Source of the DNA: Escherichia phage vB_Eco_SLUR75 | Sequence record: LR025197.1 | Length of the DNA: 59,880 bases | Reading direction: 5' to 3' (one strand) | In this document: piece after piece, positions 3,523-39,870 of the stretch | Numbering within the stretch: position 1 is the first letter of the stretch | Layout: every line of letters starts with the position of its first letter | Translations under genes and position numbers: made by a program | Notes under the pieces: model-generated | What the model was told of the DNA's origin: nothing | The model's input: only the letters and a program-made list of their open reading frames with translations | Database searches by the model: none

Positions 3523-3948
3523 ATGTCAGTAAATTTTGTCAAACAGCCAACTTTAAATACATGCGTTTCTGCGTGTTTGGCAATGATCCTTAATAAACCT
3601 GTCGAAAAGGTCATTGAGGAATTTCATAGTCGTTATTATAACAACTGGGAAATCACTATCAGCGAATATTTGACTAAAAACGGCGTCCCGCATCATTGTT
3701 CAGAAGGTGGTGGGCGTGAAACTTTGCATATGGGAGGTTTGTTCCTGTGCACGGTGCCAAGTCTTAATATTCCTGGCGCATTGCACCAGATTGTGATTGA
3801 TATGACAGATCACAAGTTTATTGTGCATGATCCAATTAAAGGATGGGAAGGTAAAAAGTTCTATGTTGGTCCGGATCAAGATCCTGAAGAGCCTGGAGCT
3901 TTTATCATTCATACTTGGGTCAAAGACGTTGAAATCCTGCCTTATTAA
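3523..3948 (+). CDS. Putative papain-fold cysteine peptidase, C39-like (141 aa)
   Basis: N-terminal QPTLNTCVSACLAMIL resembles the C39 catalytic Cys signature; candidate His in HKFIVHDP. Confidence 0.4.
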   Translation: MSVNFVKQPTLNTCVSACLAMILNKPVEKVIEEFHSRYYNNWEITISEYLTKNGVPHHCSEGGGRETLHMGGLFLCTVPSLNIPGALHQIVIDMTDHKFIVHDPIKGWEGKKFYVGPDQDPEEPGAFIIHTWVKDVEILPY

Positions 3949-4010: not shown

Positions 4011-4196
4011 ATGACCAAACTATACGCCGGATTGTTTTTATTTGCGACGTTAATGTTCGCTGGGCTTTATACCTATACAGTAGTCGAACAAACTTCCACG
4101 GTTATCCGAATCTTTGCAAGTACAGGGCTTTGCATCTGTCTTATTCTATTTGTTTTATGCATTGTTATTATCCAAGACCAAAGGAAAGTTAAATGA
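4011..4196 (+). CDS. Small membrane protein (61 aa)
   Basis: RBS AAGAGGGG; two predicted TM helices. Confidence 0.5.
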   Translation: MTKLYAGLFLFATLMFAGLYTYTVVEQTSTVIRIFASTGLCICLILFVLCIVIIQDQRKVK

Positions 4197-4657
4197 CCAC
4201 AATTGCGTTCGATGGAAAAGTATTAGCTGCGGACCGTGGAGTTATGCGCGGGGAAGCTGTGACTGCTTATAAGAAAGTTCATAGCGTGAATGGACATCGT
4301 GGACGGTTTTTACTTGGCTTGTGCGGTTTGACGGCATTTACCGATCAGGTGTTGCGTTATTTTAATAGCGCGGAACCTGTTAAGTTCCCTGATATTAAAC
4401 TTTACAGTAAAGATGATGATTACGGGCAAACTTGCGGTCTTGCTGTCACTCCGGAAGGTACTTGCCATTTTATTTATAATGATGGTACTTTGAGCGAGCC
4501 CATGCTGGATGGATGGGGATCTGAGGGTAGCGGTTGTGTGTTTGCCGCTGGTGCATTAGCCGCTGGTGCAAGCGCAAGCGAAGCTATTGAGCTGGCAATT
4601 AAACACACCACATGCGCATTCCTGGGAGTTGATACAATATCATTTGAGGGTTTTTAA
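4193..4657 (+). CDS. HslV/proteasome-beta-like Ntn-hydrolase (154 aa)
   Basis: Begins MTTIAFDGKVLAAD (Thr directly after Met, as in HslV TTIVSV...); Gly/Ala-rich GSEGSGCVFAAGALAAG...EAIELAI resembles the HslV C-terminal region. Confidence 0.45.
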   Translation: MTTIAFDGKVLAADRGVMRGEAVTAYKKVHSVNGHRGRFLLGLCGLTAFTDQVLRYFNSAEPVKFPDIKLYSKDDDYGQTCGLAVTPEGTCHFIYNDGTLSEPMLDGWGSEGSGCVFAAGALAAGASASEAIELAIKHTTCAFLGVDTISFEGF

Positions 4658-4918
4658 ATGACTACATTCAGTCACCTGATCCCACCTGCTTATCATAGTA
4701 AGGTAGTTGACCACGGGACGCATGTTGTAATTGGTGGCGAAATCTTTATCACAGATAACGAGGAAATCGCCATTGCAATTATTGACAGCACTCAGCATGA
4801 CTTTATGGTTATCCTGCAACACGAACCAGATAACTTCACTTTTTACTCCAGCTACGGGGTCGATAAAGGTGGAAAAAGCCTTGTTGCTTTCTACATTAAC
4901 GACTGGTTTGACGGGTAA
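4658..4918 (+). CDS. Hypothetical protein (86 aa)
   Basis: ATG immediately after the upstream stop. Confidence 0.45.
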   Translation: MTTFSHLIPPAYHSKVVDHGTHVVIGGEIFITDNEEIAIAIIDSTQHDFMVILQHEPDNFTFYSSYGVDKGGKSLVAFYINDWFDG

Positions 4919-5000
4919 TCTCCTTAGATCAATTCTTCTTGCGCCGTATCAAGTTTCTCTGTTACCCTTGAGTGGTTCATGTCAAGCGGAGGAACTCGAT

Positions 5001-5438
5001 ATGGCACTTCAACCTCGTGGTATTCGTAATAACAATCCAGGCAATATTCGCTGGGGTGACAATTGGCAGGGCTTAGTTCCTGCTGATAAGCGAACCGATA
5101 AATCTTTTGCGCAATTCACGCAACCGATTTACGGCATTCGTGCGCTAGCGAAAATCCTGACAAACTACACCAAACGTGAAGGCTTGCCCAATGTGGGTAA
5201 GAAAAACATCGACACTGTACGTGAAATTATCGCTCGCTGGGCACCGCCTAACGAAAACGATACGGAAGCGTATATTCGCTCTGTTGCCAAAGCAATTGGT
5301 GTTCAACCTAACGATCCAATTAATGTCTTCGACAAGGCAATTATGTCAGGATTGGTGAAAGCAATCATTCGTCATGAAAATGGCATGATGCCCTATACCG
5401 ATGACGTAATTAACCGCGCTATTGCAATGGTACTTTAA
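5001..5438 (+). CDS. Putative endolysin (145 aa)
   Basis: ATG at M91 of track ORF 4731..5438 with RBS GGAGGAA; sits directly upstream of holin/spanin genes; conserved GIRNNNPGNIRWG motif; followed by a terminator hairpin. Function is by context only. Confidence 0.35.
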   Translation: MALQPRGIRNNNPGNIRWGDNWQGLVPADKRTDKSFAQFTQPIYGIRALAKILTNYTKREGLPNVGKKNIDTVREIIARWAPPNENDTEAYIRSVAKAIGVQPNDPINVFDKAIMSGLVKAIIRHENGMMPYTDDVINRAIAMVL

Positions 5439-5442
5439 CTGA

Positions 5443-5465
5443 CGGGGCGTTAGCCCCTTTTATTT
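5443..5465 (+). terminator. Rho-independent terminator
   Basis: GGGGC-gtta-GCCCC hairpin followed by TTTTATTT. Confidence 0.6.
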
Positions 5466-5474
5466 GGAGGGAAC

Positions 5475-5819
5475 ATGTTCAATTCACCCAACGAACATTG
5501 GGCAGTTCTAGCGGGGTTTGCGTTTATCTCCCTCATTGGGGGAGCTCTCGGTTATGTCATGCGTACAATAGACGCTGGTAAGAAAGTACGGGCAAGCATT
5601 GCATTTCTTGAAGGCTTATCCGCCGCTTTCTTTGGCGTTATAATGTATGCGATCTACAGGGAGTTTAACATCAGCCTTTGGTTCGCTTTTGGCCTTGCTG
5701 GCCTATTTGCTTGGGCAGGTTCACGTGCTACGCTAAAAGCCCTAACGTCGCTTATAGCTTCACGGACAGGGATCAAACTCGATTCAGGGGACTGCAAACA
5801 TGAAAACGATTCTAAATAA
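5475..5819 (+). CDS. Putative holin (114 aa)
   Basis: Three predicted TM segments with a charged C-terminal tail; position in lysis cassette. Confidence 0.5.
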   Translation: MFNSPNEHWAVLAGFAFISLIGGALGYVMRTIDAGKKVRASIAFLEGLSAAFFGVIMYAIYREFNISLWFAFGLAGLFAWAGSRATLKALTSLIASRTGIKLDSGDCKHENDSK

Positions 5820-6276
5820 CTTCTTCAGTTTTATAAAAACTAAACCGCGTCTGTTTATCGAGTATTTGATGATCGGCGCGGTTGTGTTTTTATGCGGGGT
5901 GGCTGCATACTTGTGGTCACAGAACGAGCTCAGCAAAACTAATTTAAATCATGCTGAGCAAAGACTAACCGTTGTAGAACGGGACAATGCAAAGCTGGGC
6001 GAAGCTGTTGTATTTCTTGCATCCCAACGGGAGAAGGATACTGAATCCTATCGAAAATTGGCTTCAGCGATTGAAAGTGAGCAACATAACCACAGGTTGC
6101 TTCAGGACAAATTAAAAGCACTGGAGAAAAGCAATGCCGACGTCAAAGCTTATCTTAATGAGCGTGTTCCTGATGATTTGCGCAGGCTGCTCGACGGAGA
6201 TACAACCTCCACCACAGCCACAGATAGTCAAGATAAAACTTCCGGCTCATCTGTTGGTAGAATGTCGGGAAGTTGA
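5800..6276 (+). CDS. Putative i-spanin, Rz-like (158 aa)
   Basis: N-terminal TM helix LMIGAVVFLCGVAAYLW followed by a coiled-coil periplasmic domain; overlaps the o-spanin gene. Confidence 0.5.
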   Translation: MKTILNNFFSFIKTKPRLFIEYLMIGAVVFLCGVAAYLWSQNELSKTNLNHAEQRLTVVERDNAKLGEAVVFLASQREKDTESYRKLASAIESEQHNHRLLQDKLKALEKSNADVKAYLNERVPDDLRRLLDGDTTSTTATDSQDKTSGSSVGRMSGS

Positions 6277-6439
6277 TAAATATCCTTTGGTTTATACAAG
6301 GGACATTATCCAACGTTTGCAGGATACAGAAACAGCTCTGACTGAATGTAAACTGAGGGTTAAGGAAATCATACGCTATGAAGCTGAAAATGTTTCGCTT
6401 GATTTTGTAGGATCAAGCAATTATATTCAGCCTAAATAG
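6134..6439 (+). CDS. Putative o-spanin lipoprotein, Rz1-like (101 aa)
   Basis: Signal peptide with lipobox-like MICAGCS, proline-rich QPPPQPQ; starts inside the i-spanin gene in another frame. Confidence 0.5.
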   Translation: MPTSKLILMSVFLMICAGCSTEIQPPPQPQIVKIKLPAHLLVECREVDKYPLVYTRDIIQRLQDTETALTECKLRVKEIIRYEAENVSLDFVGSSNYIQPK

Positions 6440-25085: not shown

Positions 25086-28000
25086 ATGGCAACTCGTTTA
25101 CGTGGTACTTTAGTTGATGGTTTGAATAAGCCTATTATCAACGCTACAGTTGCGCTTTTAGCTAAAGGAAACAGTCTTACCGTATTATCCGGCAGCGAAG
25201 CTATCTTTAAAACAAGTGCAACCGGAACTTATGATATTACAGTCCAGACAGGTTATTACAAGGTTATTATCGGTCCACAGGGCGTAGAGCCATATAAAGC
25301 TGGTGAAATTGCTATTTACGCGGATAGTAAAGAAGGTACGCTGAATAACTATTTAACTACATGGGCACCGGAAGAGCTAACTCCGGAAGTTATTACTCAG
25401 GTAAAAGATTTGGTTGCACAAGCTGAGACAGCTAAGAACGCTTCATCCACGTCTGCTACTAAATCCGAACAGGAGCGAGTTAAAGCAGAAGCTGCTGCTA
25501 AAAAAGCGGAAGACACTGCTAATGGTATGAAAGCCTCTATTGGCTTAACTACTGCCCCAAGACATGTTGCAAATATTACAGTAGAACCTACAGCATTCTT
25601 AGGCTTCATACGAATTGTACGATCTACCACAGTCGGTTATCCAGATATAGCTTCATCAGAAAACGTATTGGCTGGTTTTATTTCTGCTATGGACGGAACC
25701 CCTGGATATGTCGGGGTATTTGTTGGTGACTTCACCGGAACTGTATACACTTATCGTTGGACTAAGAATGTTGGCGCGGTATGGTGGAAACAAGTTAACT
25801 ACTCTACTGTCAACAGATATACCCAGCTTAACGCAGAAACTAATTTTACAAACCAATTGGGTAACGCCAAACTTCTTATTGACAATAATAAAGTTTGGGG
25901 TGCTTATGATAACGACAATAAACGCTATATACCCCTTGCAATAGCTCAGGGTGGTACTGGCGCGGTAAATGTTAATGATGCTTTGGAAAACTTTGGGTTA
26001 GGTCGTAACTCCGCGCCACGTTTCAAACATCTTGATCTGGACAATGCATCAAATTCTACACAAGCAGCTTCTGGAATTCTAAACGGCTACCTCCGTGATT
26101 CTAGCGGTGTGCAAAGAACTAAGCATAGATTATATTCAGAAATTAAAAGCGATGGGAAAGCGTGGTTAACCATGCAGATCTATTCTGATGAATCTACGCA
26201 GAAGACTTTAGGTTATAACATTGACGGCGATTTCCAAATTGTACGTAATTTTATCGGGCAGTCCTTACAATTATCGGATTTAACCACAACTCATAAAAAT
26301 CTACAGATTGATAGATTTAAGCAGTTGTCCGCTGGAACAAGGGTCTACGGAGGTCCAGCCGATGAGCGATATTTTGAAGTTCATACCGGGGCCTGGGGTG
26401 TTTATAACGTAACAGAAAAGAAATGGATACCTTTAGCCATATCACAAGGTGGGACGGGAGCTGTTACAGTTGCGGACGCCAAGAAGAACCTTTTAATCCC
26501 GGACGGAGGTCTTGATTCGGCTACCCGTGTGGATAAACCCGCTGGAGCGGAAGATGCTAAGTATTATCCAATCATTATTAGCCAACCTAGCGGGTATGAT
26601 GGCACGTACCTAACAGAAATTGAAATGAGCACTCCCAGCAGAAGTGCTGCACAAAGTCCTAACTCTAACATCTTAAGAGCTTGGATTCGAAGCGCTGGAT
26701 GGAGCGATAAAGGTACTGTTGGCTTTGGGAATTTCTTTGCTTATGATAGTAAAGAGGTTGCAATTTTATGTATACGTGGCACATCTAGAGGTCAATATCC
26801 TCATAATGCTGTTTACGTAAAGGGCGATGCTTTCCCTGTTTATATTAGGAAGACTGTTGGATCCACAATTACAGTTCCCACTTCTGACTGGTCTGCAGAT
26901 CCAAATGCGTCAGATAAGTGTGTTTATAAATGGGGCATCACAGGCGATTTAGATGGTATTGGTGATGAATATGGGTGTCGAAATATACTAAACTTTGTCA
27001 AAGGTTTGAACGGATTTTATTGTAACGACTATTTCCGTGATGCTGGAGGGAATGCTTATCTTAAGGATGGGATGAATTATGGAGGTGATATAAAATTACA
27101 ACTCCGTAAATTGGAAATAAACGGTAATCTTACCGCAGGGAACGCTATAACTGCTTTCGGTCCTACTGTAGCAAATAATACATTTGTATCACAGTTAACA
27201 AATGCGGATTCTAGTCAAGCATTGCATCAAAGCGAGTTTAGAGCTGGGGAAAGCGGTGGGCAAATTGTTGTTCGGGATATGTCAGCAGTAGCCAATCATA
27301 AATTCTTTAACTTTAATCTAGACGGAAGCTTCAGTCCGCCAAACGGATTATTGTCTTCTACTGGTGTGGATTGGAACAGTCAAATTAATACCGTCAATAA
27401 GTTCTATGGAATTGCCGGACAAGTTAACTCAGCAGAAAACAATGTTGTTTACGGGGGCATTCACGTAGGTTTTAGCGGTAATTATGCATTTCAACTAGCT
27501 GGTAGAAATAACAAAGCAAGTTTTCGTACATTTGAAGCAGGCACACCTGGACCTTGGATGCGTCTTATTACTGATCAGTATGCAGACTTCAAAGTACCAA
27601 TTTTTGCTAACAAGAATGGTGAAGCTATAACCATTAAATCGACAGTAGATGACAACTCTGAATCTGGATATATCGCTGGGAGGAATAACGCTAATACCCG
27701 TTTGTGGTATATAGGGAAGTCCGGACCTCAAGAAACTGTGGTTATCCGTAATGATATGAATGGAAACCAAATACTCTTAAGGGACGGTGCAGGCGATATA
27801 AGCTTGGATACAAAAGACGGGAACAAAGTTGTATTTGCAAAAGCTTCCAACTTTAGACTTGTTAATAGTAATGGAAAATATACAAGGTTAGTAACATCAG
27901 GAAGTTCAACTCATGCAATTAGCATGGACAACTGGGGTACAAGCGCAAGACCTACTGTGTTCGAATGTAAGTATGAAGACTATAGCACTTCTGCTAACGT

Positions 28001-28472
28001 TGGTTGGATATACTACGGTCAGGTAAATACAGATGGAAGCCGAACATTTCAGGTAAACGGAACTGTCGGTTGTACTAGTGTTGTTCAAAGCTCAGACCGA
28101 GATCTTAAAGACAACATTAAGACTATTGCAGATGCAACTAAAGCATTGCGTAAAATGAATGGCTACACATATACTCTCAAGGAAGATGGTTTACCCTATG
28201 CTGGTGTAATCGCTCAAGAAGTTATGGAAGCTCTACCTGAAGCGGTTAGCAGTTTCACAAAGCATGAGTATATGGAAGGCCAAGATGGAGAAGGTAATGA
28301 TACAAGATATGATCTTGGAAAACGTTATCTTAATGTAGACTACTCCGCGGTAACTGGTCTTCTGGTTCAGGTTTGTCGTGAAGCAGATGACCGCATTACA
28401 AAACTTGAAACTGAAGTTGAGGAACTCAAAAAATTAGTTGCAACACTTGTTAATAAAGAACCACTACCATAA
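25086..28472 (+). CDS. Tail fiber with C-terminal intramolecular chaperone, peptidase S74-like (1128 aa)
   Basis: C-terminal SDRDLKDNIKTI...GYTYTLKEDG...YAGVIAQEV matches the self-cleaving chaperone motif; internal duplicated IPLAI(A/S)QGGTGAV motif. ATG at M5 of track ORF (track start 25074 is GTG). Confidence 0.8.
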   Translation: MATRLRGTLVDGLNKPIINATVALLAKGNSLTVLSGSEAIFKTSATGTYDITVQTGYYKVIIGPQGVEPYKAGEIAIYADSKEGTLNNYLTTWAPEELTPEVITQVKDLVAQAETAKNASSTSATKSEQERVKAEAAAKKAEDTANGMKASIGLTTAPRHVANITVEPTAFLGFIRIVRSTTVGYPDIASSENVLAGFISAMDGTPGYVGVFVGDFTGTVYTYRWTKNVGAVWWKQVNYSTVNRYTQLNAETNFTNQLGNAKLLIDNNKVWGAYDNDNKRYIPLAIAQGGTGAVNVNDALENFGLGRNSAPRFKHLDLDNASNSTQAASGILNGYLRDSSGVQRTKHRLYSEIKSDGKAWLTMQIYSDESTQKTLGYNIDGDFQIVRNFIGQSLQLSDLTTTHKNLQIDRFKQLSAGTRVYGGPADERYFEVHTGAWGVYNVTEKKWIPLAISQGGTGAVTVADAKKNLLIPDGGLDSATRVDKPAGAEDAKYYPIIISQPSGYDGTYLTEIEMSTPSRSAAQSPNSNILRAWIRSAGWSDKGTVGFGNFFAYDSKEVAILCIRGTSRGQYPHNAVYVKGDAFPVYIRKTVGSTITVPTSDWSADPNASDKCVYKWGITGDLDGIGDEYGCRNILNFVKGLNGFYCNDYFRDAGGNAYLKDGMNYGGDIKLQLRKLEINGNLTAGNAITAFGPTVANNTFVSQLTNADSSQALHQSEFRAGESGGQIVVRDMSAVANHKFFNFNLDGSFSPPNGLLSSTGVDWNSQINTVNKFYGIAGQVNSAENNVVYGGIHVGFSGNYAFQLAGRNNKASFRTFEAGTPGPWMRLITDQYADFKVPIFANKNGEAITIKSTVDDNSESGYIAGRNNANTRLWYIGKSGPQETVVIRNDMNGNQILLRDGAGDISLDTKDGNKVVFAKASNFRLVNSNGKYTRLVTSGSSTHAISMDNWGTSARPTVFECKYEDYSTSANVGWIYYGQVNTDGSRTFQVNGTVGCTSVVQSSDRDLKDNIKTIADATKALRKMNGYTYTLKEDGLPYAGVIAQEVMEALPEAVSSFTKHEYMEGQDGEGNDTRYDLGKRYLNVDYSAVTGLLVQVCREADDRITKLETEVEELKKLVATLVNKEPLP

Positions 28473-28643: not shown

Positions 28644-29351
28644 ATGTCTGACATGACTCTTTTACCTACTAATCTCGGTGGCGACGGTTTCGGTGGTGAA
28701 GCTGGTGCGGCTGGTATCGGTGGCGCGATCGGTGGCTTAATTGGTTCCTGGATCGGTAATGGTTGGGGCGGCAATGGTGGTTGGGGTGGTCGCGGTAACT
28801 TCGCTGGTCCGGTGGAAGTGCAAGCTTCTGTTGACACCAACGCAATTCTGCAAGCTATCAACAACGGTACTCTTCAGACCATTCAGGGGCAGAACGGTAC
28901 TAACCTGACTGTTGAGCGCTCCGCTGCTTCTACCTATAACGGTATTACTCAGCAGAACACTCAAAACCTGCTGGCTTCCGTTCAGGGCTTTGCTGGTCTG
29001 AACACGCAGATCCAGGGCGGCACCAGCCAAGTGCTCGCGGCTCTGTGTAACAACGAAGCAGCTAACATTACCCGCTCCTTCCAGGCTCAGTTAGAAGCTC
29101 AGAAGTGTTGCTGCGAAACCAACCTGAACATCGAGCGTCAAGCAGAAGCTACTCGTGCTCTCCTGCGCGATCAGCACGCACAAGCGCAAGCTGTTCTGAT
29201 CTGTGACCTGAAGTCCCAGTTGCAGGAAGCTCGCTTTGCAAACTCTCAGTTGGCGCAGACGGCTGGCCTTACCTGTAAAATCAATCAGGTTGAGCAGTTA
29301 GTTAACTTTAAACTGCCAACTCCTCCGACTCCTCCGACTGGCTGCTGCTAA
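28644..29351 (+). CDS. Glycine-rich protein with C-terminal Cys motifs (235 aa)
   Basis: ATG at M44 of track ORF with RBS TGGAG; N-terminal GGDGFGGEAGAAGIGGAIGGLIGSWIGNGWGGNGGWGG, Gln/Asn/Thr-rich middle, C-terminal CCCE...PTPPTPPTGCC. Confidence 0.5.
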   Translation: MSDMTLLPTNLGGDGFGGEAGAAGIGGAIGGLIGSWIGNGWGGNGGWGGRGNFAGPVEVQASVDTNAILQAINNGTLQTIQGQNGTNLTVERSAASTYNGITQQNTQNLLASVQGFAGLNTQIQGGTSQVLAALCNNEAANITRSFQAQLEAQKCCCETNLNIERQAEATRALLRDQHAQAQAVLICDLKSQLQEARFANSQLAQTAGLTCKINQVEQLVNFKLPTPPTPPTGCC

Positions 29352-29422: not shown

Positions 29423-29791
29423 ATGAGCCACATTAAAATCGCAACGATGGGAATACCACGGGTTAAATTGCCTAAGGTTGCTTTACCTCGCATTAGCGTA
29501 GGTGAGCACCACCATGAACACGAGAAAGAGGAATATAAACATGCTCACTCTTATGCTCGAGATCATGAACATATGGCAGCTATGTCAAATGTTCTTGACC
29601 GGATGGAAGAACCTCCGCATACGTGGGCGGCGTACCACGACAAGCCCGGCGGTATGATGTCCATTGTTGAAATGGAATACCGCGAATTAATGGAGTGTAA
29701 GAAAGAAGGCGACCGCGCAGGGATCATGAAAGAGTTGACTGATCTTGCCGCAGCTTGTACTTGCGCTCTTCAAAAAATGAAAGATATGTAA
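29423..29791 (+). CDS. His-rich protein, possible MazG-like NTP pyrophosphohydrolase (122 aa)
   Basis: GEHHHEHEKEEYKHAHSYARDHEH metal-binding-like stretch; EMEYRELME...MKELTDL resembles the ExxE...ExxD pattern of MazG/HisE proteins. Confidence 0.3.
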   Translation: MSHIKIATMGIPRVKLPKVALPRISVGEHHHEHEKEEYKHAHSYARDHEHMAAMSNVLDRMEEPPHTWAAYHDKPGGMMSIVEMEYRELMECKKEGDRAGIMKELTDLAAACTCALQKMKDM

Positions 29792-29806: not shown

Positions 29807-30337
29807 ATGCAAAACGTAAACGCAGGAATGGGCGTAACCCAGTTCAACGGGATGAAACCGAAAAACTCCATCAACATGGGCGGTGTTGATTGGACGTTAC
29901 GTCGGGACGCTACCGATTCAACTACCATGTTCCCACACCAGAAGGTGAGCTGGCTTAATGCTGGCTGTGAACCTATGGGTGATGGAAGGGTTCATTACTG
30001 TTGGATTATGGGAGTGATACCGCCTACGCCGGGCACTATCGAACGACCCGTGAATGTGATGTATGTCGGCTTCCACCAGTTCAAGATCACAATTGCTCCA
30101 AACTCCATTAGTCAGTCAGATCTTGATCGTATGCATGTTTACGTCAGCGATGGTACAGACTTCGCAGGGGATTTTATTAGTAAGTTTCTTGGTATGCAAC
30201 CAGAGCAGCCTGTAGAAGCACGCGAGCATATTAGCCCGTGGCCACCCATGATTGATCAGGAAGTGCTGCAACCAAAGACCGCTCAAACGGTCCCTCAGAA
30301 ACCGGAGCAGAAGGTGAAACCAAATGACGAAGAATGA
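29807..30337 (+). CDS. Hypothetical protein (176 aa)
   Basis: RBS-like GGAAG upstream; no recognisable motif. Confidence 0.5.
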   Translation: MQNVNAGMGVTQFNGMKPKNSINMGGVDWTLRRDATDSTTMFPHQKVSWLNAGCEPMGDGRVHYCWIMGVIPPTPGTIERPVNVMYVGFHQFKITIAPNSISQSDLDRMHVYVSDGTDFAGDFISKFLGMQPEQPVEAREHISPWPPMIDQEVLQPKTAQTVPQKPEQKVKPNDEE

Positions 30338-32433: not shown

Positions 32434-34419
32434 TTAGGCGTATCCCATGTCTTCGAGATACTTCTCTGCTTTAGCTATATAAGCATCATAATCTATGTCG
32501 TCCGGCACTTTATCCGGTAGCGTCATGATCGGAACACCTCCCGCGCTACCAGCTACACGGTTGCCCGTGTTAGCATAGATTATTTCAGGTGTTTCTTCAT
32601 TAGTGCTTAAGTACCAGCGTACAACCTTACCCAAAAATTCGCCATTCCATACCGCGCCACCTTTTACCGCACGTAAGATAATGAATTTTCTAATATCGTT
32701 GCAATTGCGTATAGTACGAGAAACAGGCGTACCGTGGGCCAAACATTCACATACAGCTTCCATAATAATCTCACCAGTACAGTTCTTTTGAAGACCTGTC
32801 TTTGCGAACCACCCTTTACGCTTAATTTCAACATTTCCTTCCTCGTCAGGTTCTTTTACTGCAACATAGTTATTGACGTTAGCACTGTACAGCTTGTCAT
32901 AGTAGTTGGATTCCATTTCAAAACCTGTTACGGATTCCCACCACTTGATCATATTATCAACGAAGTCCTGCATGTGGTCCGGATACTTAACCACAATACC
33001 GTCCGTGTTGGCTGAAATTACTTTAACACCATTTAACTCAAATGCTTCAATAAGCATCAACAGTGAAAGCTGTCCGGTTAATGTAACTTGTATCAATAAT
33101 TGCGGCGCGTACAGTACGGACCACATAGACCCCAGCTTACCAAACGATCCGTTGATAACGATCTTCAGCGTGTTGGCTGTGTTTTTGTCCCCTGAGTGCT
33201 TAGCTGCAATACGACGATCTACAATACTCTTATAAACACGAAGGAACGCTGGTCCCAACTGTTCTGGATATAAGCCCTGATTAAGAATGATTGTAGGATA
33301 ATAAGACGTTACGTCAATGTCCCGCTTTTTGATACCAGGCTCTTTACCGTGGCCAGCACACTCTTCGGAGCTATGCAAACCACCAATACCCATACGGTAG
33401 ACACCGTCCGCAATCTTGATTTCAAGACCTGTCAATGCAGGAGGTAAGCTGACACCACCGTTATCGCTAACAATAAAGCGACAGTCCCGAACAATATCCA
33501 AAACACTATTCATCAAAGGTGTTTGAAAACGAATAAAGTCCGGTATGTTGTATACATACTTTGTTCCAGGATAAACTTGCGGACGCTGTGGGCGCACGCC
33601 CGTCAACGCTTGGATTTCGTGCTTAATTACGTCTTCTGCAATTTGTGCATCGGAGCGTGAACGCAGGTCCACACCGTACTCTTGCGACATAATTTCACGA
33701 AGGTGTAAAGGTTCTTGTAATGCAATAAAACATTCTTCCGTCTGTACAAGGTCGTTAATACAGTACCAGCGCACAATAAGCATCTGGTCTTGCGTCAACA
33801 TTGTATTAGGCTTGAACGGTAAATCCTGCATACGACGAGTATGTACACGTCCGCCGTATTGTTTCAAACCGCCGGACCCAGGCAGCACTTCCATGATATC
33901 GATGTGGTTAACGTTCTGCATACGCTTGAGACGGTAACTCTTCAATACATCCGAAGGACGCCAGTCTTCAACGATTATTTTATCAGTTGCGTCTTTAAGC
34001 TGAGCATTAGAGCAGCCGTTAAGCGCAAGCGTAGCAATGGGCATATCGTACCCGTTACCGTTAAAGCTCACGATAAGGAAGTTTGTCATTACCCAGTTAA
34101 GTAGCAAGCAATTCAAACTACAACCGTGATACATCTCGAAGTAGACAACTTTCTTAGTTCGCACTCCGCGAAATGCAATTAAGAAATAATTTGGATAACA
34201 TTCTATATCATATACAAGCGGTTCGCGGTTAATCCATGCTTGAATAAGTTCGTCCTGTGTGTACAGGTTGTATTGGAAGTTCCGCGCTTCCTCAAGGTTA
34301 GGCAAATAATCCGGGCGCTCCCAAGTGCGCTCCGGCGGTAAACGTTTAACTTTTTCTTTCTTTGCTTTTGGCTCAGGCGGTAAGTCCTGCCAAAAGAAAC
34401 CAATAGCATCTGTCCGCAT
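32434..34419 (-). CDS. DNA polymerase, family B, with 3'-5' exonuclease domain (661 aa)
   Basis: Exo I LVYDIECY, Exo II NGNGYDMPI, pol motif A-like DIDVTSYYPT, motif B KIVINGSFGKLG, motif C-like ISANTDGI. Start at M19 of track ORF, overlapping upstream stop as TAATG. Confidence 0.8.
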   Translation of the reverse strand: MRTDAIGFFWQDLPPEPKAKKEKVKRLPPERTWERPDYLPNLEEARNFQYNLYTQDELIQAWINREPLVYDIECYPNYFLIAFRGVRTKKVVYFEMYHGCSLNCLLLNWVMTNFLIVSFNGNGYDMPIATLALNGCSNAQLKDATDKIIVEDWRPSDVLKSYRLKRMQNVNHIDIMEVLPGSGGLKQYGGRVHTRRMQDLPFKPNTMLTQDQMLIVRWYCINDLVQTEECFIALQEPLHLREIMSQEYGVDLRSRSDAQIAEDVIKHEIQALTGVRPQRPQVYPGTKYVYNIPDFIRFQTPLMNSVLDIVRDCRFIVSDNGGVSLPPALTGLEIKIADGVYRMGIGGLHSSEECAGHGKEPGIKKRDIDVTSYYPTIILNQGLYPEQLGPAFLRVYKSIVDRRIAAKHSGDKNTANTLKIVINGSFGKLGSMWSVLYAPQLLIQVTLTGQLSLLMLIEAFELNGVKVISANTDGIVVKYPDHMQDFVDNMIKWWESVTGFEMESNYYDKLYSANVNNYVAVKEPDEEGNVEIKRKGWFAKTGLQKNCTGEIIMEAVCECLAHGTPVSRTIRNCNDIRKFIILRAVKGGAVWNGEFLGKVVRWYLSTNEETPEIIYANTGNRVAGSAGGVPIMTLPDKVPDDIDYDAYIAKAEKYLEDMGYA

Positions 34420-35372
34420 TAGACACGTTCTCCAATTAACACACCGCGAAGATTTTCCCCAAAGAATGCGCAAGGTTGCGGATATAAACTAAAGTCCGCA
34501 GTCTTAACCACATTTTCGAGTAATAACAGGATGTCAATATTGTAAACTCCCGTTATTGATCTGTCCTGCAATACGAAGCTTGCACCTTCCGCATCATCGT
34601 AATGAGTACGCGCTAGACCGTTTTCAATATATACGCGAGGACGATCTTCCGCAAAAGGTTTAATTTTATGCAAGCCCTCAAAAAGACCTGGATCAACAGG
34701 ATGTGCATTGCATTGAACATTTAAAATACGACGAATATCAGGCCACTCCGCATCAATAAGCTGTGTTCGCAACCAGCGACCTTCCGGATAATGAAATGTT
34801 ACATTGTTCTTGCTAACCTGAATATGTGTCGGGTTAGCTTTAATGCGCAGTATTTCTTTAATAGCAACAGACGGTATTATGCAGTCAATAGGGAATTGAT
34901 TACCAAACCAATATTCCGCAATGGTGACGTTATTTGTAGCAAACAGGCTACCGTTATTAATCAGGATACCGCAAGCCCACGGGCGGGACGCATCCGAGCC
35001 TACGAACGGAGCAACGGATTTCACACCGTGTACGAAGCGAGCACCGTCTATTTCGTATAAATCGCCTTCAGGGAATACGTGAGGCGTTTCTTTGTCAATG
35101 CAGCGTATAGCAACACGAAACGGTCCGGACTTGATATTAAGTTTACCGTTAGCCATCATTGTTAACTGTACGGTTTCGTCACAGTTTGAAATAGCTTTAA
35201 TCATAGGTCCAGCTTCGGGCTTGCAATCAATATCCAGCTCAATAGGGCTACCCAGTGCAATAACACCGTTAAAGCCCTGTACCTGTCCATCACGGATAAG
35301 AAAGCTGGTAAGCCCTTCTACCAGTTCCTTTTTAGCGACGGAGCCTTGAACAAATTTAAGAGCGTCTAACAT
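34419..35372 (-). CDS. Hypothetical protein coupled to DNA polymerase (317 aa)
   Basis: Stop overlaps the polymerase start by 1 nt; no recognisable catalytic motif. Confidence 0.5.
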   Translation of the reverse strand: MLDALKFVQGSVAKKELVEGLTSFLIRDGQVQGFNGVIALGSPIELDIDCKPEAGPMIKAISNCDETVQLTMMANGKLNIKSGPFRVAIRCIDKETPHVFPEGDLYEIDGARFVHGVKSVAPFVGSDASRPWACGILINNGSLFATNNVTIAEYWFGNQFPIDCIIPSVAIKEILRIKANPTHIQVSKNNVTFHYPEGRWLRTQLIDAEWPDIRRILNVQCNAHPVDPGLFEGLHKIKPFAEDRPRVYIENGLARTHYDDAEGASFVLQDRSITGVYNIDILLLLENVVKTADFSLYPQPCAFFGENLRGVLIGERV

Positions 35373-35599
35373 TAGCGATCCTCGATTGCTCTAATTGTGG
35401 TTAAATCTAATTCACAGGTTGGAGGGTATCCATAAAGTCCCATTTGTTTTCCTTGTGCATTAAACCATGTACCTGACGGATCCTGCCACTGCTTAGGTGT
35501 CTTGTGGAGAAATACTACTCTGTTTTCACCGTAATAATTAATTCTTACGCCTGTGTGAGTATATTTACGTTTACCTTTTGGTCTTCTTAAGTTAGCCAT
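35372..35599 (-). CDS. Hypothetical basic protein (75 aa)
   Basis: Start/stop overlaps with both neighbours. Confidence 0.45.
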   Translation of the reverse strand: MANLRRPKGKRKYTHTGVRINYYGENRVVFLHKTPKQWQDPSGTWFNAQGKQMGLYGYPPTCELDLTTIRAIEDR

Positions 35600-36519
35600 C
35601 AGAACAACTCCATTACACGATCACGGAATGTGCCGTCATGGGTAGCGTTAATGTTTGCAGCAATTACACCATAAGCCCATAAATTGAAGGCAGCACGTGA
35701 TTCATAGATTGTTGATAAACGTTCGTAAGTGAAACCGTTTTGCTCAAGGTATTTAAGGACAGCGTCTTGTTCAATCTCAGTTAATGTTGAAACATGCTTA
35801 CCAAAATGATGGCGGTCCGGTGACTTATCGGATACGCGCATTGGACCCCACGGAGGAGTAACCACACTTCCAAACGCTGCCGCTTGAATCCAGGAGGATG
35901 AGTCACAGCTATACCACGGGTAACGCTCCATAATGGTTGTGGACGTAATACCAAACGCATGAAGTTTAATCTTAGCACGTCCGCTACCGTCGCAAATATA
36001 TTTGTCCCACATGCGGTCAAGCCAAGTCTTAAGCGTGTCCGTGGAACGTCCTACCATACCCCCGATAGTGATATATTCGTAGTTCTTCATGTAGTATTCA
36101 AGATAGCGGAAGTCCTCCCCAAAGTGAAAGCAAGGTAACGGTTTAGCACCGCGTGCTTCCATTTCAAGTTGGTTACGGTAGGTTTGCAACGGATCACCGA
36201 TACCATCGAGCACCGACGCCATTACTGCGCCATCTTCTACGCGAAGGATGTCTTTGTTGCGCTTGATGTATTCGCAGTATTCAACAATATCAATGTGAGC
36301 ACCTAACGAGTGCGCGGAGAATGCACCGGAGTCGAGAAACACTTTAGCCCCGTCCGCACGCATTTGATCAACATACTTCTGACGCCCAACGTAGTGGTAG
36401 GATTCCAAAATATGAGGCAGATTGCGCGTGATATTTTTCTCATGCTCTGACAGCTTTTCATAACGCTGCTGGCCAGGCATATATCCGTTCGTGTAAACTG
36501 CTGCCATAAAAACGTTCAT
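35599..36519 (-). CDS. dpdA: DpdA-like 7-deazaguanine DNA transglycosylase, TGT superfamily (306 aa)
   Basis: KVFLDSGAFS motif as I recall for phage DpdA; co-located with the preQ0 synthesis genes. Confidence 0.65.
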   Translation of the reverse strand: MNVFMAAVYTNGYMPGQQRYEKLSEHEKNITRNLPHILESYHYVGRQKYVDQMRADGAKVFLDSGAFSAHSLGAHIDIVEYCEYIKRNKDILRVEDGAVMASVLDGIGDPLQTYRNQLEMEARGAKPLPCFHFGEDFRYLEYYMKNYEYITIGGMVGRSTDTLKTWLDRMWDKYICDGSGRAKIKLHAFGITSTTIMERYPWYSCDSSSWIQAAAFGSVVTPPWGPMRVSDKSPDRHHFGKHVSTLTEIEQDAVLKYLEQNGFTYERLSTIYESRAAFNLWAYGVIAANINATHDGTFRDRVMELF

Positions 36520-36749
36520 TTTTGGAACGGTCCTCCAAACTGATCAATTAGTTCTAAAGTACGCCACGCTTCATTAAATGCTTCGTCCGCTCGATGTTTA
36601 GCGTCAATAAGCTGCTGCTTTAAAACATCTGTAGGCGCGTCATTCTGTATTGCAGAGCAAGCATCCGCAGTACCTGCTTTAAGCTGGTAGAATGCTGTCT
36701 CTAAGATTAGTTGTCTTGACATATTTCCTCCAATGACTAAAAAGCCCAT
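36516..36749 (-). CDS. Hypothetical protein (77 aa)
   Basis: ATGA-type overlap with dpdA start. Confidence 0.45.
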   Translation of the reverse strand: MGFLVIGGNMSRQLILETAFYQLKAGTADACSAIQNDAPTDVLKQQLIDAKHRADEAFNEAWRTLELIDQFGGPFQK

Positions 36750-36793
36750 ATCAGTATTATGACCGATATGGGCTTGATCTGTAAAGCTATCTA

Positions 36794-37435
36794 TTATTTA
36801 CAAGCTTCGAGAAACTCCCGGCGCCATTCTTTGCCAATATCGCTACCATGCCACAGTTCTGTAGCGCCCCGGAACGCTTTGGTAATAGTAGAGCTGCCGC
36901 ATACCTGCTTAACACCGCGCGACTCCATGCACATATGCTTGGCGTCAATATAAACACATACAGCTTTCGGGTTTAAATGCTCCTGAATAGCGTCTGCAAT
37001 CTGGTTAGTAAGACGTTCCTGAACTTGCAGTCGACGACTAAAAGCATCCACAACGCGAGACAGCTTACTAAGCCCAACAATCTTCCCATTGGGGACATAA
37101 CCAACAACAGCATGACCGATGATAGGAGCCATGTGATGCTCACAATGACTGTATACAGGAATATCACGGACAATGACCATTTCATTGGTGTTTTCCGCCC
37201 CATCCTCAAAGGTTTTAAACAGACCAGCGATATCTACATCGTAACCGCTAAACCATGTAGCATAAGCTTTAGCGACACGGTCTGGAGTCTCTGCTAATCC
37301 TGGACGTAATTCAATGCAATCTTCAATCTGAGTTAGTAAAGTATGCACCGCGCGAGCAATACGGAATTGAGTACCTTCGTTATCAATAGTAAATTTTGGC
37401 ATGGTTTGCAGTTTCCTTGTTGTTAATGTGGTCAT
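36794..37435 (-). CDS. folE: GTP cyclohydrolase I (213 aa)
   Basis: [20 protein letters not shown] and RLQVQERLT motifs match E. coli FolE. Confidence 0.9.
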
Positions 37436-37436
37436 A

Positions 37437-37973
37437 TTACAGGCTATAGTTTACGTGACATTTCGAAGTTTCTTCGATGGTGCATTCTACAAGTTGAACA
37501 CCATGTTCGTCAAGCAGTTGCGGACCAATCACGTCAACCATATATGCAGCTAAGTTTTCCGCAGTTGGGTTGAATGGTAAAGCTACCAATGAGCTTAAGA
37601 AATGCTCATGGTCTTCATGTTCCAGAGGACAACTCGGGCGACTTGCTGCAATTTTCAAAGCGTCAATCAAATTATCACGATTCCAATGCAGGAACTTATG
37701 ATCCCAATTATCTTCCAGCCACTGGCAGAGCGTAGTTTTAACCACACTAAAGTCGATAACTCGGCCCACATGGTCCAGCTTAGCTCGCTCTTTTACTTCG
37801 ACGTTGACAAGACCTCCGCCCATTTCAATTGGTACTTCTTTAACTGTTTCTTTCGGCGCAACCTTAAAGTGAAACTTATAGTTGTGACCGTGAAGGTGAC
37901 GACACTTGCTTTCATGCCCTACAACACGATGTCCAGCGCAAATTTCATGTGAACGAATTACTGTATAACTCAT
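37437..37973 (-). CDS. queD: 6-carboxy-5,6,7,8-tetrahydropterin synthase (178 aa)
   Basis: [22 protein letters not shown] (CxxH...C..HGH zinc/catalytic motif). Confidence 0.85.
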
Positions 37974-38560
37974 TTTAATACCTCTTTAGACTGTTCAATT
38001 TCTAACGCACGCTGCGCCGACGCAATAATGTCTTTCAAATCTTCTACCACATGCTTATGACCGCGTTCGCCAGGCTGCAACGCCTTTTTAATCAAATGTT
38101 GTAAAGCTGGGTTAGTTGTCTTCCAAGCTTCCAAGACATCATACACGTCCACGATGCATTTTACAACATTCCCATTTTGATCTTTACCATAAATAACTTT
38201 CTGATATTTATTCATGGGAATTTTAGACGGTTCGTATTTCGTAAAAACCGCACCATTAAATGTATTACTTATGCTTATTCCAGAAGAAGGTTGATTGTAC
38301 AATCCGGAGCGAGTGTTTTCGCTAGCCTGTTTGACGTAATCATCCGCAACGATATAGCGCCAGGCTATAATATCTTGAACTTTATAAGGGCTATTTTCAT
38401 CCATAGCTGAACGCCCTTCCATAGCCCAATCCCATCCATGTAATAGATTCTTAACGTGTGTGCCGTTGCGCAAACGAACTTCAAACTTCTCATTACGAAG
38501 AAAAATAGGCATTCCTTTACCGTCGTGTTGGTGCCAAATTTTATTCAAATTATCTTTCAT
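37970..38560 (-). CDS. Hypothetical protein inside the 7-deazaguanine cluster (196 aa)
   Basis: First ATG (M16) of track ORF, which begins with TTG; 2 nt after upstream stop. No QueF motif or other signature. Confidence 0.5.
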   Translation of the reverse strand: MKDNLNKIWHQHDGKGMPIFLRNEKFEVRLRNGTHVKNLLHGWDWAMEGRSAMDENSPYKVQDIIAWRYIVADDYVKQASENTRSGLYNQPSSGISISNTFNGAVFTKYEPSKIPMNKYQKVIYGKDQNGNVVKCIVDVYDVLEAWKTTNPALQHLIKKALQPGERGHKHVVEDLKDIIASAQRALEIEQSKEVLK

Positions 38561-38562
38561 TT

Positions 38563-39042
38563 TTACGCTCTCGCTGTACGTGAATGAACTTCGTAAACAA
38601 CCCAAAGGATAGCAGACGCTGTGAACTTACTTAAGCTCATTGCTACCATCGATCCCGGATTAACAATACCTATAATACTTAAGAACACAATGGAGTCAAT
38701 TGGTACAGCTACCAAAGAGCTGATAAATACTCGTTGATGGAAAGGCTTCTTGGTGACCGTGTATACTACATAGTCCGCAAACTCACTAAGCGCAAAAGAC
38801 GCAACGGATGCAACTACAACCGCAGGATTACCGAACACCCAGCTAAGGATGCAACCAACAATCATTGCAGGGATGACGCCTTTGCCAGCGTTACGCTGTG
38901 CGTAATCACGCAGAACAAAGATAATGCCTACAAAGAAAGCCATCATGGGGACTACGCCAAGTGGCGTATTAAGCATCGGAAGGTAGGAAAAGCCCAGGTT
39001 TACGAATGTAATTGCAGCCAGATAAGCAACGATAAATTTCAT
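38563..39042 (-). CDS. Integral membrane protein, possible queuosine-precursor transporter (159 aa)
   Basis: Four to five predicted TM helices; located between queC and queD. Transporter assignment is inference from context only. Confidence 0.3.
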   Translation of the reverse strand: MKFIVAYLAAITFVNLGFSYLPMLNTPLGVVPMMAFFVGIIFVLRDYAQRNAGKGVIPAMIVGCILSWVFGNPAVVVASVASFALSEFADYVVYTVTKKPFHQRVFISSLVAVPIDSIVFLSIIGIVNPGSMVAMSLSKFTASAILWVVYEVHSRTARA

Positions 39043-39162
39043 ACTTTTGTTCTCCAGTTTTAACAGCGTTATTCGCTGGTTGTTGGGTTTAAAAGCTTTA
39101 GTAGTATAGTTGGGTTACCGCACCCTAAACAATGCGCTAGCGGTGCGGTTTTCGCGGTAAGA

Positions 39163-39870
39163 TCAAGCTTTGCTAATAAATTCGCTGTACCCTTTAGCAC
39201 GAAGTTTACACGCTGGACATTCCCCGCAACCGTATCCCCAGTCATGCAGAGTACGACGGACGCCATTATAGCACGTATGGGACTGCTCAATTACTGTGGT
39301 TAAGAAACCAACCTTATCCGCCAGCTCAAACGTTTCCGCTTTGTTTAAACGCATAAGCGGAGTAACAAAATGGATATCTGTTTCATATCCAACGTTTAAG
39401 GTAGCTTCAAGTAGATCTACAAACTGCTGACGGCAATCCGGATAACCGCTATAGTCCGTTTCACAAACGCCTGTAACCACATATCGAGCTCCAACCTTCT
39501 GCGCGTAGGCGTGCGCGGTAGTCAGGAAAAGAGCATTACGGTTTGGCACAAAGCTTGCCGGAAGGTTGTTGTGCTGTTCGTGATGTTCGTTAACATCACC
39601 TTCATTCCCGATTAAAGCACTATTGCCGATCTGTTTCAAAGCAGGTAATTCAAAGACAACAAACGGGACATTGTGCTCTTTACAAATTTGATTAGCACAA
39701 GCCAGCTCAATGTTATGACGTTGACCGTATGCAAAACCGATAGCGTAGACTTTGTCATAGTTATTAAGTGCAAGACCTAGACAAGTCACGCTGTCCTGGC
39801 CGCCAGACAGGACGACAACGGCGGAGTTATGATTTTTTACAGGGAATACCAGTTTATCTAATTTATTCAT
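39163..39870 (-). CDS. queC: 7-cyano-7-deazaguanine (preQ0) synthase (235 aa)
   Basis: PP-loop VVLSGGQDS, GVCETDYSGYPDCR, C-terminal Cys cluster CYNG...GCGECPACKLR; aligns with E. coli QueC. Confidence 0.9.
   Translation of the reverse strand: MNKLDKLVFPVKNHNSAVVVLSGGQDSVTCLGLALNNYDKVYAIGFAYGQRHNIELACANQICKEHNVPFVVFELPALKQIGNSALIGNEGDVNEHHEQHNNLPASFVPNRNALFLTTAHAYAQKVGARYVVTGVCETDYSGYPDCRQQFVDLLEATLNVGYETDIHFVTPLMRLNKAETFELADKVGFLTTVIEQSHTCYNGVRRTLHDWGYGCGECPACKLRAKGYSEFISKA

Follow-up and report, generated by a model that had tools for sequence, protein, structure and literature searches.

A very probably canonical holin-endolysin-spanin lysis cassette in a CAjan-like Seuratvirus infecting Escherichia coli

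The region 5001-6439 of the window, which here means the whole 59,880-nucleotide stretch of DNA that was analysed, carries four genes on the plus strand in the order endolysin, holin, i-spanin and o-spanin, with a GC hairpin and a T-run between the endolysin and holin genes. The earlier note had given this order and these coordinates, and all four open reading frames (ORFs) are present as it described. Pfam scores lie above the gathering cut-offs for the holin and for the o-spanin (family LysC), and PHROG matches across the cassette range from E 5e-63 to 4e-14; the four ORFs and their family matches are beyond chance, and the gene structures and family memberships are direct observations. The window is 99% identical at the nucleotide level to the published Seuratvirus phages SLUR25, SLUR63 and Greed and is CAjan-like. 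In BASEL phage KurtStettler the same four genes are labelled putative endolysin, holin, i-spanin and o-spanin. The CSP1 genes CSP1_091 (endolysin), CSP1_092 (holin) and CSP1_093 (spanin) are orthologous to the cassette, with amino acid identities of 96.6% for the endolysin, 93.9% for the holin, 79.7% for the i-spanin and 91.1% for the o-spanin. We therefore regard the region, with high confidence, as a lysis cassette of the canonical holin-endolysin-spanin kind, belonging to a CAjan-like Seuratvirus infecting E. coli.

The endolysin gene (5001..5438, plus strand) encodes a protein of 145 aa starting with MALQPRGIRNNNPGNIRWG; it has the Shine-Dalgarno (SD) sequence GGAGG at 4988-4992 and the stop codon TAA at 5436-5438. 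An HMM search of this gene, proposed as a check in the earlier note, returned no match in Pfam and NCBIfam and matched PHROG 873 ("endolysin") with E 4.7e-63. A phmmer search against the PDB recovered 7Q47, the catalytic domain of the ORF39 endolysin of Hafnia phage Enc34 (E 7.1e-34, residues 5-130). The AF2 model (pLDDT 87.3) has six helices in an all-alpha arrangement like the alpha-lobe of lysozyme and was matched by Foldseek to 7Q47 with E 2.5e-14 and TM 0.86-0.88; no other PDB entry was matched below E 0.1. Identity between the Enc34 and window proteins is 41-44% in the structural alignment and 45% by tblastn. Both have an all-helical fold, the N-terminal motif RGIRNNNPGNI and a Glu/Trp/Tyr signature, in which Glu131, Trp79 and Tyr95 of Enc34 align to Glu126, Trp80 and Tyr91 of the window protein. 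W80, Y91 and E126 are invariant in 33 homologues, and a "putative endolysin" of VogelGryff is 100% identical to the window protein; the analysis shows the fold, the conserved residues and the conservation across relatives. By its sequence and model, the protein is a clear member of the Enc34/PHA02564 type, a single-domain, lysozyme-like glycosidase with predicted catalytic Glu126 together with Trp80 and Tyr91. The earlier note was right to call it an endolysin, while its view that the call stood by context only, with the class unclear, is superseded by the matches to 7Q47 and PHROG 873, the fold and the conserved Glu/Trp/Tyr.

A homologous catalytic domain is also present in the endolysin M4Lys of Salmonella phage BSPM4. 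Enc34 and M4Lys both have a C-terminal two-helix membrane domain and holin-independent lysis, whereas in the window protein nothing follows the catalytic domain. Their two-domain architecture is not found in its 145 aa, and a hydropathy scan detected no hydrophobic segment (maximum KD19 0.92, KD19 being the Kyte-Doolittle hydropathy of the best run of 19 residues). Since it lacks the C-terminal membrane domain of Enc34, the protein should be a soluble enzyme and is predicted to be strictly holin-dependent.

Many database records name homologues of this protein structural protein P5, capsid and scaffold protein, or virion protein, and the domain does occur within true virion proteins, namely at the N-terminus of the K1F-type (Kayfunavirus) gp16 internal virion proteins (N-terminal lytic domain of the same family, 35-37% identity), in tape measure proteins and as the N-terminal lytic domain of Gp29 (PDB 9vvp, 1295 aa). 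It is nevertheless very improbable that the 145-aa protein is itself a virion structural protein and not the lysis enzyme. The gp16 and Gp29 domains sit in large ejection proteins acting from outside at infection, whereas the window enzyme belongs to late lysis and is a free-standing domain encoded directly 5' of the holin and spanins. In addition, the catalytic domain of Enc34 has muralytic activity and its crystal structure was solved as that of an endolysin, the CSP1 orthologue (96.6%) serves as the endolysin in co-expression lysis assays, and no other lysin was found among 87 scanned ORFs of the window. The "P5" and virion labels appear to trace to the name provisionally given to the conserved-domain model and would then be without experimental weight.

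The earlier note had named a match to a non-lytic family, or an endolysin elsewhere, as arguments against its call. The family matched is lytic, a Pfam scan of 87 window ORFs revealed no further peptidoglycan hydrolase, and searches of the window with the family HMM and tblastn gave no second copy of the endolysin domain. A 141-aa protein resembling C39-type cysteine peptidases (3523-3948) was considered and rejected as a lysin; its Pfam match is sub-threshold (14.2 vs 22 bits) and confined to an N-terminal motif, and it has no PDB match.

The catalytic domain of Enc34 (ORF39deltaC) shows muralytic activity against E. coli, P. aeruginosa and H. alvei after permeabilisation, and in superposition its Glu131, Trp79 and Tyr95 coincide with the catalytic residues of GH73 and GH23 enzymes; its closest structural relative is the GH73 glucosaminidase TM0633, and the authors conclude that it is a glucosaminidase (PMC8943055). 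The endolysin subfamily is not covered by the tests in PMC13084259. By analogy with Enc34, the window endolysin is predicted to be muralytic on Gram-negative peptidoglycan, and beta-N-acetylglucosaminidase is its most likely activity, as proposed for Enc34. It is possible, with a clearly smaller probability, that the enzyme cuts another bond, as a muramidase, a lytic transglycosylase or a dual glycosidase and endopeptidase. Lytic transglycosylases typically work with one catalytic Glu. Relatives are labelled exotransglycosylase, and the N-terminal homologues in podovirus internal virion proteins are labelled transglycosylases. The GH23 lytic transglycosylases phiKZ gp144 and MltC are also similar to Enc34 in fold (PMC8943055), and HPLC of M4Lys digestion products suggested two activities, glucosaminidase and endopeptidase (reported in PMC8943055). 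The proximity of Enc34 to TM0633 and the preference of its authors argue for the glucosaminidase assignment instead, and no peptidase-type residues are evident in the window endolysin.

A conserved untranslated leader (4919..5000, plus strand), which includes the SD sequence, lies 5' of the endolysin. CSP1 and STP-SP5 match it almost letter for letter beginning near 4935, and also over the ~20 nt that precede the ATG, and yong3 keeps it in part; in the same comparison the flanking coding DNA is more diverged than the leader. The leader is possibly a promoter or regulatory site. Further copies of the leader (4936-4964) were sought across the genome and none was found, the occurrence in the window being single. 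A sigma-70-like promoter candidate (TTGACA-16-TATGGT, 4782-4809), which paired with the hairpin would delimit a monocistronic endolysin unit, was not adopted; its -10 element is not kept in STP-SP5, and promoter matches are at chance level.

The intrinsic-terminator-like element between endolysin and holin (5444..5465, plus strand) consists of the hairpin GGGGC-GTTA-GCCCC (5444-5457) and TTTTATTT (5458-5465), with an RNAfold energy of -10 kcal/mol for the hairpin. CSP1, STP-SP5 and yong3 have hairpin and T-run at the same place between the two genes; the stem is invariant, without covariation, and the loop varies. Both elements of the terminator that the earlier note placed after the endolysin are thus present and conserved, while a terminator scan is by itself at chance level, with no enrichment in the region over shuffled sequences (6 found, 5.4 expected); the terminator reading derives from hairpin quality and conservation, not from scan enrichment. 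Judged from its sequence, the hairpin probably sets the ratio of endolysin to holin and spanins, either by partial termination or by stabilising the 3' end. We consider it less likely that the element is an mRNA-stabilising or processing structure, or functionless, and not a transcription terminator. Such a role would suit the stem of only 5 bp, the chance level of terminator-like matches in the region, and the distance of 17 nt from the hairpin to the holin start; this leaves no room for a new promoter, so that the holin, spanin, terminase and structural genes must be read through. The all-GC stem, the tetraloop and the 8-nt T-rich tail speak for a terminator, as does the retention of position and stem in relatives with endolysins ~70% identical in amino acids.

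The holin gene (5475..5819, plus strand) encodes 114 aa of the LydA family (holin superfamily III), with matches to PF16083 (39.8 bits, gathering cut-off 28.4, residues 15-86) and to PHROG 785, a holin family (E 8e-25). Three hydrophobic and (nearly) uncharged stretches, at residues 9-29, 40-61 and 66-83, have mean KD values of 1.85, 1.64 and 1.49, and the charge analysis gave a K+R count of 4 in loop 1 and 6 in the C-tail. These segments and family matches agree with the three-TM holin of the earlier note, and the protein is predicted to be a holin of class I that has three TMDs in N-out/C-in orientation. The third predicted TMD (66-83) is moderately hydrophobic. The CSP1 holin, which has been studied experimentally, is predicted to be of class I, with three TMDs by TMHMM (PMC13577005). 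Only two segments of the window holin exceed the KD19 threshold of 1.6, and a Phage_holin_3_3 homologue in phage Bhz54 is labelled with two TMDs; all the same, a two-TMD holin or a pinholin in place of the class I large-hole type seems quite unlikely. The 18 aa of segment 66-83 carry no charge, the charge distribution suits three spans with N-out/C-in, and the TMHMM result concerns a CSP1 holin 94% identical to that of the window. As the endolysin has no SAR or signal sequence, a pinholin would be unable to release it.

The i-spanin gene (5800..6276, plus strand; 158 aa) overlaps the holin gene by 20 nt, and its product matches PHROG 5975 (E 8e-62) and PHROG 89, Rz-like spanin (E 8.7e-11). It has an N-terminal TMD at about residues 22-40 (KD19 2.25, within residues 16-41), and single-sequence AF2 gave a continuous helix over residues 16-122 (pLDDT 74-94) followed by a disordered C-terminal tail; the earlier note had described an i-spanin with an N-terminal TM and a coiled coil. 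The match to TIGR03495 LysB (E 8e-9, 35.8 bits) is below the curated cut-off of 92.75.

The o-spanin gene (6134..6439, plus strand; SD GGAG at 6123-6126) encodes a prolipoprotein of 101 aa matching PF23793 LysC (46.4 bits, cut-off 27) and PHROG 456. It lies in frame 2, +1 relative to the i-spanin in frame 1, overlaps that gene by 143 nt and ends beyond it at 6439; the ORF of the proposed Pro-rich lipoprotein (MICAGCS), which had been reported to start inside the i-spanin gene in another frame, is confirmed. The signal peptide (residues 1-18) reads MPTSKLILMSVFLMICAG|C, followed by QPPPQPQ and a Pro-rich linker. The lipobox is C-A-G-C, with a putative lipidated Cys19, Ser and not Asp at +2, and conserved Cys44 and Cys72. 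Cys at lipobox position -3 is atypical, the usual consensus being [LVI][ASTVI][GAS]C. The match to NF038368 P2_Rz1 is marginally below its cut-off (26.6 vs 27). By these family scores the o-spanin belongs to Pfam LysC, a broader family, and the pair are not P2 LysB/LysC equivalogs under the NCBIfam cut-offs.

The protein-database search with the o-spanin returned only four near-identical proteins, a result of the overlapped ORF being passed over by gene callers; homologues were instead found by tblastn against phage genomes, with the frames read by hand. The AGC|ST motif and both downstream Cys are kept in STP-SP5, yong3, Erebus, Bhz54 and the PRD1-type PR5 ORFv, and AGC|S is conserved across six diverged homologues, including PRD1-type ORFv. 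Both overlapped frames are conserved in relatives; within the overlap, conservation between the window and CSP1 is higher in the o-spanin frame (87%) than in the i-spanin frame (72%). The same overlapped two-component architecture is found in P2 LysB/LysC and in the Rz/Rz1-like ORFu/ORFv of the PRD1 group. PR5 ORFv has 32% identity to the window o-spanin by tblastn (E 9e-4), with a common AGC|ST lipobox and two periplasmic Cys. The window o-spanin differs from the P2 and PRD1-group proteins in the Cys at -3, and from STP-SP5 and yong3 in a 16-aa C-terminal extension.

Dinitrophenol (DNP) is an uncoupler that collapses the proton motive force (PMF). [quoted passage not shown] PMF-dependent hole formation releasing a cytoplasmic endolysin is predicted for the window holin by analogy with this DNP-triggered lysis of the CSP1 orthologue. 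The window has a candidate antiholin at 28644..29351 (plus strand), with 97.9% amino acid identity to the 708-bp CSP1 gene CSP1_021, and a CSP1_022 homologue at 29423..29791 (plus strand; 98.4%). CSP1_021 is holin-interacting in a two-hybrid assay, and CSP1_022 is a co-factor required for CSP1 lysis suppression (PMC13577005). Between CSP1_020, the tail-fibre component, and its window counterpart the overall identity is only 47%. By analogy, lysis timing is probably modulated by this remote antiholin set at 28.6-29.8 kb. LydA of phage P1 belongs to the same Pfam family, PF16083, as the window holin but is distant in sequence (E 5e-10); it is described as belonging to class I and as being under the control of an antiholin with a single TMD (PMC13577005). 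P1 lydB adjoins lydA, whereas the candidate antiholin of the window lies ~23 kb from the holin.

It is a long shot that the 145-aa domain combines glucosaminidase and endopeptidase chemistry and, separately, that hairpin and remote antiholin form an unusual lysis-timing circuit. If true, an M4Lys-like dual activity would place two chemistries in one small all-helical domain, and a conserved hairpin without room for a downstream promoter, with an antiholin ~23 kb off beside the tail fibre, would be an unusual timing circuit for a virulent siphophage.

In the mechanism that we propose, the 145-aa endolysin, which has neither a signal or SAR sequence nor a C-terminal membrane domain, would accumulate as a soluble protein in the cytoplasm. 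This would last until the class I holin of the LydA family triggers and opens large holes in the inner membrane. The enzyme would then reach the murein and cleave glycan strands, with Glu126 as general acid and Trp80 and Tyr91 positioning the substrate. The i-spanin would stand in the inner membrane with a long periplasmic helical rod and the o-spanin would be held in the outer membrane as a lipoprotein via Cys19; once freed from the murein mesh, the pair would fuse inner and outer membranes. The CSP1_021/022 homologues would probably tune the timing, and the hairpin 3' of the endolysin the ratio of endolysin to holin and spanins.

Phages Bhz54 and Erebus have the same order of endolysin, Phage_holin_3_3 holin, i-spanin and overlapped o-spanin, and their endolysins, an L-Ala-D-Glu peptidase and a metallopeptidase, are unrelated, which makes the first slot of the module an exchangeable endolysin slot. 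The cassette is of an already known, ordinary four-gene type and biologically a textbook system, and the main value of the finding is curation. The endolysin domain is widespread, with at least 791 phage records and at least 4568 protein clusters containing it, and it has no Pfam or NCBIfam model; as the wrong labels "structural protein P5" and "capsid and scaffold protein" are widely given to it, automated pipelines call no endolysin in such phages. Most GenBank records of the genus omit or shorten the o-spanin: that of KurtStettler starts at a TTG 40 codons downstream, by which signal peptide and lipobox are lost, and the CSP1 and Greed records have short hypothetical proteins at this position. 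The long ORF of the earlier note includes the conserved lipobox Cys19 and improves on most GenBank annotations, and the full o-spanin ORF with the conserved lipobox should supersede the shortened GenBank versions.

Reading of the region bore out the four lysis genes proposed in the earlier note, which lie consecutively on the plus strand. The endolysin ORF (5001-5438, 145 aa, N-terminus MALQPRGIRNNNPGNIRWG) is preceded by GGAGG 8 bases upstream, and is followed by a membrane protein, the holin (5475-5819, 114 aa), and by an i-spanin (5800-6276, 158 aa), whose gene shares 20 nt with that of the holin. The o-spanin ORF (6134-6439, 101 aa) has its own GGAG 7 bases upstream and lies in the +1 frame of the i-spanin gene, which it overlaps by 143 nt before running 163 nt beyond its end. 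A 4-kb segment round the cassette was 99% identical to Escherichia phages SLUR25, SLUR63 and Greed, ~99% to CAjan and the BASEL phages KurtStettler and SeppeHuegi, and 92.5% to phage CSP1; these relatives are Seuratvirus (Queuovirinae) siphophages. The KurtStettler record names the same four genes putative endolysin, holin, i-spanin and o-spanin. VogelGryff has a 100% identical endolysin, and CAjan a 100% identical o-spanin frame. The cassette is thus already known, with near-identical GenBank entries and closest orthologues that have been studied experimentally. The window represents a whole or near-whole phage genome in circularly permuted form, with a 7-deazaguanine DNA-modification cluster typical of Queuovirinae on the minus strand (32437-41037; Pfam matches to QueC, GTP cyclohydrolase I, PTPS, QueF-like and Radical_SAM families). 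The modification genes annotated there in KurtStettler are DpdA, FolE, QueD, QueC, QueE and YhhQ.

The earlier note considered the endolysin callable by context only and its class unclear. An HMM search of 5001-5438 gave no match to Pfam or NCBIfam models, which accounts for that doubt, but returned PHROG 873 'endolysin' (E 4.7e-63), and the top match among PDB sequences was 7Q47 (E 7.1e-34), the catalytic domain of the Hafnia phage Enc34 endolysin. This domain (PHA02564) showed muralytic activity against permeabilised E. coli, P. aeruginosa and H. alvei and has an all-helical fold, like the alpha-lobe of lysozymes; its Glu131, Trp79 and Tyr95 overlay residues with catalytic roles in the GH73 glucosaminidase TM0633 and GH23 transglycosylases, and the authors judged beta-N-acetylglucosaminidase to be its most probable activity (Cernooka et al. 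2022, PMC8943055). The PDB sequence alignment, in which the 7Q47 chain numbering is shifted by +1, places these residues at Glu126, Trp80 and Tyr91 of the window endolysin, all invariant, together with an RGxRNxNPGNI motif, across 33 aligned homologues (52-87% identity). The AlphaFold model derived from these aligned sequences (pLDDT 87.3, six helices) had 7Q47 as its sole match among PDB structures (E 2.5e-14, TM 0.86-0.88; next E 0.6). The endolysin call is therefore upheld by PHROG 873, the 7Q47 match and the invariant residues, and it falls in a known, structurally characterised family.

That family comprises at least 791 phage records and at least 4568 protein clusters, including Chi-like phages, Pseudomonas transposable phages, corticoviruses and the N-termini of K1F-type gp16 internal virion proteins, and the domain is also present in PHROGs for tail injection transglycosylase, tape measure proteins and a head protein. 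Its records are often labelled 'structural protein P5', 'virion protein' or 'capsid and scaffold protein', which is annotation noise. Enc34 and M4Lys, the endolysin of Salmonella phage BSPM4, have a C-terminal two-helix membrane domain, with which lysis is possible without a holin, whereas the window endolysin ends directly after the catalytic domain, without a hydrophobic stretch (best 19-residue hydropathy window 0.92). No signal or SAR sequence was found at its N-terminus. Judged from these sequence features, the enzyme should be soluble, cytoplasmic and dependent on a large-hole holin. A longer ORF is used in some records (Dru_SM1 'endolysin', 214 aa); the corresponding 213-aa ORF from an in-frame upstream ATG (4797) overlaps the upstream gene (4658-4918) and is disfavoured by the family alignments and the SD site at the 5001 start.

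No convincing endolysin was found elsewhere in the genome: Pfam scans of 87 window ORFs returned none of the lysozyme, amidase, peptidase-M15/M23, CHAP/NlpC or SLT families, and neither a family HMM nor tblastn picked up another Enc34-type domain in the window. The diverged phages Bhz54 and Erebus have unrelated endolysins in the same slot ahead of homologous holin/spanin modules, which independently supports the positional logic of the call.

Several features were observed upstream of the cassette. The untranslated leader (4919-5000) occurs once in the genome, is conserved beyond the flanking coding DNA in CSP1, STP-SP5 and partly yong3, and may have promoter or regulatory function. Less than 1 kb upstream of the cassette, a 61-aa protein with two hydrophobic helices (4011-4196; PHROG 22841, unknown function) immediately precedes an HslV-like peptidase (4193-4657; PHROG 1040, Pfam Proteasome sub-threshold). 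A 141-aa protein at 3523-3948 (PHROG 4049, unknown function) has a C39-like cysteine-peptidase signature (QPTLNTCVSACLAM ... HQIVID ... HDP), sub-threshold against Pfam Peptidase_C39 (14.2 vs 22 bits) and without a PDB match.

Between endolysin and holin, a hairpin, GGGGC-GTTA-GCCCC followed by TTTTATTT (5444-5465, plus strand, -10 kcal/mol), starts 5 bases past the endolysin TAA stop. The GGGGC-N4-GCCCC stem and T-run are also present in CSP1, STP-SP5 and yong3, with variation in the loop only and no covariation in the stem, and a generic terminator scan of the region gave no enrichment over shuffles. Only 17 nt separate the hairpin from the holin ATG, too few to accommodate a new promoter, and any termination must be leaky. 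With moderate confidence, we regard the hairpin as a partial terminator or a 3' stabiliser favouring endolysin mRNA.

The i-spanin gave a full-length match to PHROG 5975, a match to the Rz-like PHROG 89 and a weak match to P2 LysB under the cut-off. Its single strong TMD (~residues 22-40) agrees with the N-terminal TM previously described, and a single-sequence AF2 model gave an unbroken helix (16-122) followed by a low-confidence Ser/Thr-rich tail. The Greed record begins this gene at an internal ATG (window 5869).

The overlapped o-spanin, a predicted lipoprotein, matched Pfam LysC (46.4 bits vs 27) and PHROG 456; the P2_Rz1 equivalog scored 26.6, marginally under its cut-off of 27. Its N-terminus, MPTSKLILMSVFLMICAG/CS, holds an unusual lipobox with Cys at -3. 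In the homologous frames of five diverged phages (STP-SP5, yong3, Aminobacter phage Erebus, Stenotrophomonas phage Bhz54 and ORFv of PRD1-group PR5) the motif (A/V)(G/S)C-S-(T/M) and two downstream cysteines (here Cys44 and Cys72) are kept throughout, and this conservation of the lipobox points to Cys19 as the predicted lipidated residue. By the general Lol rule, its Ser at +2 predicts sorting to the outer membrane. Within the overlap, conservation is higher in the o-spanin frame than in the i-spanin tail (87% and 72% vs CSP1; 81% and 62% vs STP-SP5), the overlapped-spanin pattern described by Kongari et al. 2018, who also noted gene-caller bias against overlapped o-spanins. The gene is shortened or missing in most GenBank records: KurtStettler begins it at a TTG (window 6254), giving 61 aa without signal or lipobox, CSP1 has a 50-aa hypothetical protein at the locus, and Greed also lists a short hypothetical protein. 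The longer ORF of the earlier note, from ATG 6134, is the better gene model. The CAjan-type protein has a C-terminal extension of ~16 aa (..AENVSLDFVGSSNYIQPK; 6392-6439), past the point where the Pfam LysC model ends and missing in the STP-SP5 and yong3 homologues, which end at 86 aa.

The holin matched Pfam PF16083 (LydA holin, superfamily III; 39.8 bits, cut-off 28.4) and PHROG 785 holin (E 8e-25), and hydropathy gave the expected three segments (9-29, 40-61 and 66-83, with 0, 1 and 0 charged residues), a strongly basic loop 1 (K+R 4), a short, neutral loop 2 and a charged C-tail. This arrangement appears compatible with class I, N-out/C-in, with a third span of only moderate hydrophobicity. 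The CSP1 holin and endolysin are 93.9% and 96.6% identical to those of the window, and three TMDs were predicted for the former (Kim and Ryu 2025, PMC13577005). In that study CSP1 holin and endolysin were co-expressed in E. coli, and CSP1_020 (tail fibre), 021 (candidate antiholin) and 022 (co-factor) jointly suppressed lysis; suppression was lifted by holin overexpression or by DNP, and 021 bound holin in a two-hybrid assay (PMC13577005). Homologues of CSP1_021, 022 and 023 are found at 28644-29351, 29423-29791 and 29807-30337 (97.9%, 98.4% and 98.9% aa identity). They adjoin a tail fibre (25086-28472) with a Peptidase_S74 chaperone domain and 47% overall identity to CSP1_020. By analogy with the CSP1 data, the holin is probably under the same remote antiholin, though the fibre is divergent, and may be controlled from ~23 kb away.

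Which bond is cleaved by the Enc34-type family is the remaining point of interest, glucosaminidase being assigned only as 'most probably', and for Enc34. The residual value of the finding lies partly in annotation hygiene, both in correcting mis-called o-spanins and in recognising an endolysin domain for which Pfam and NCBIfam have no model.
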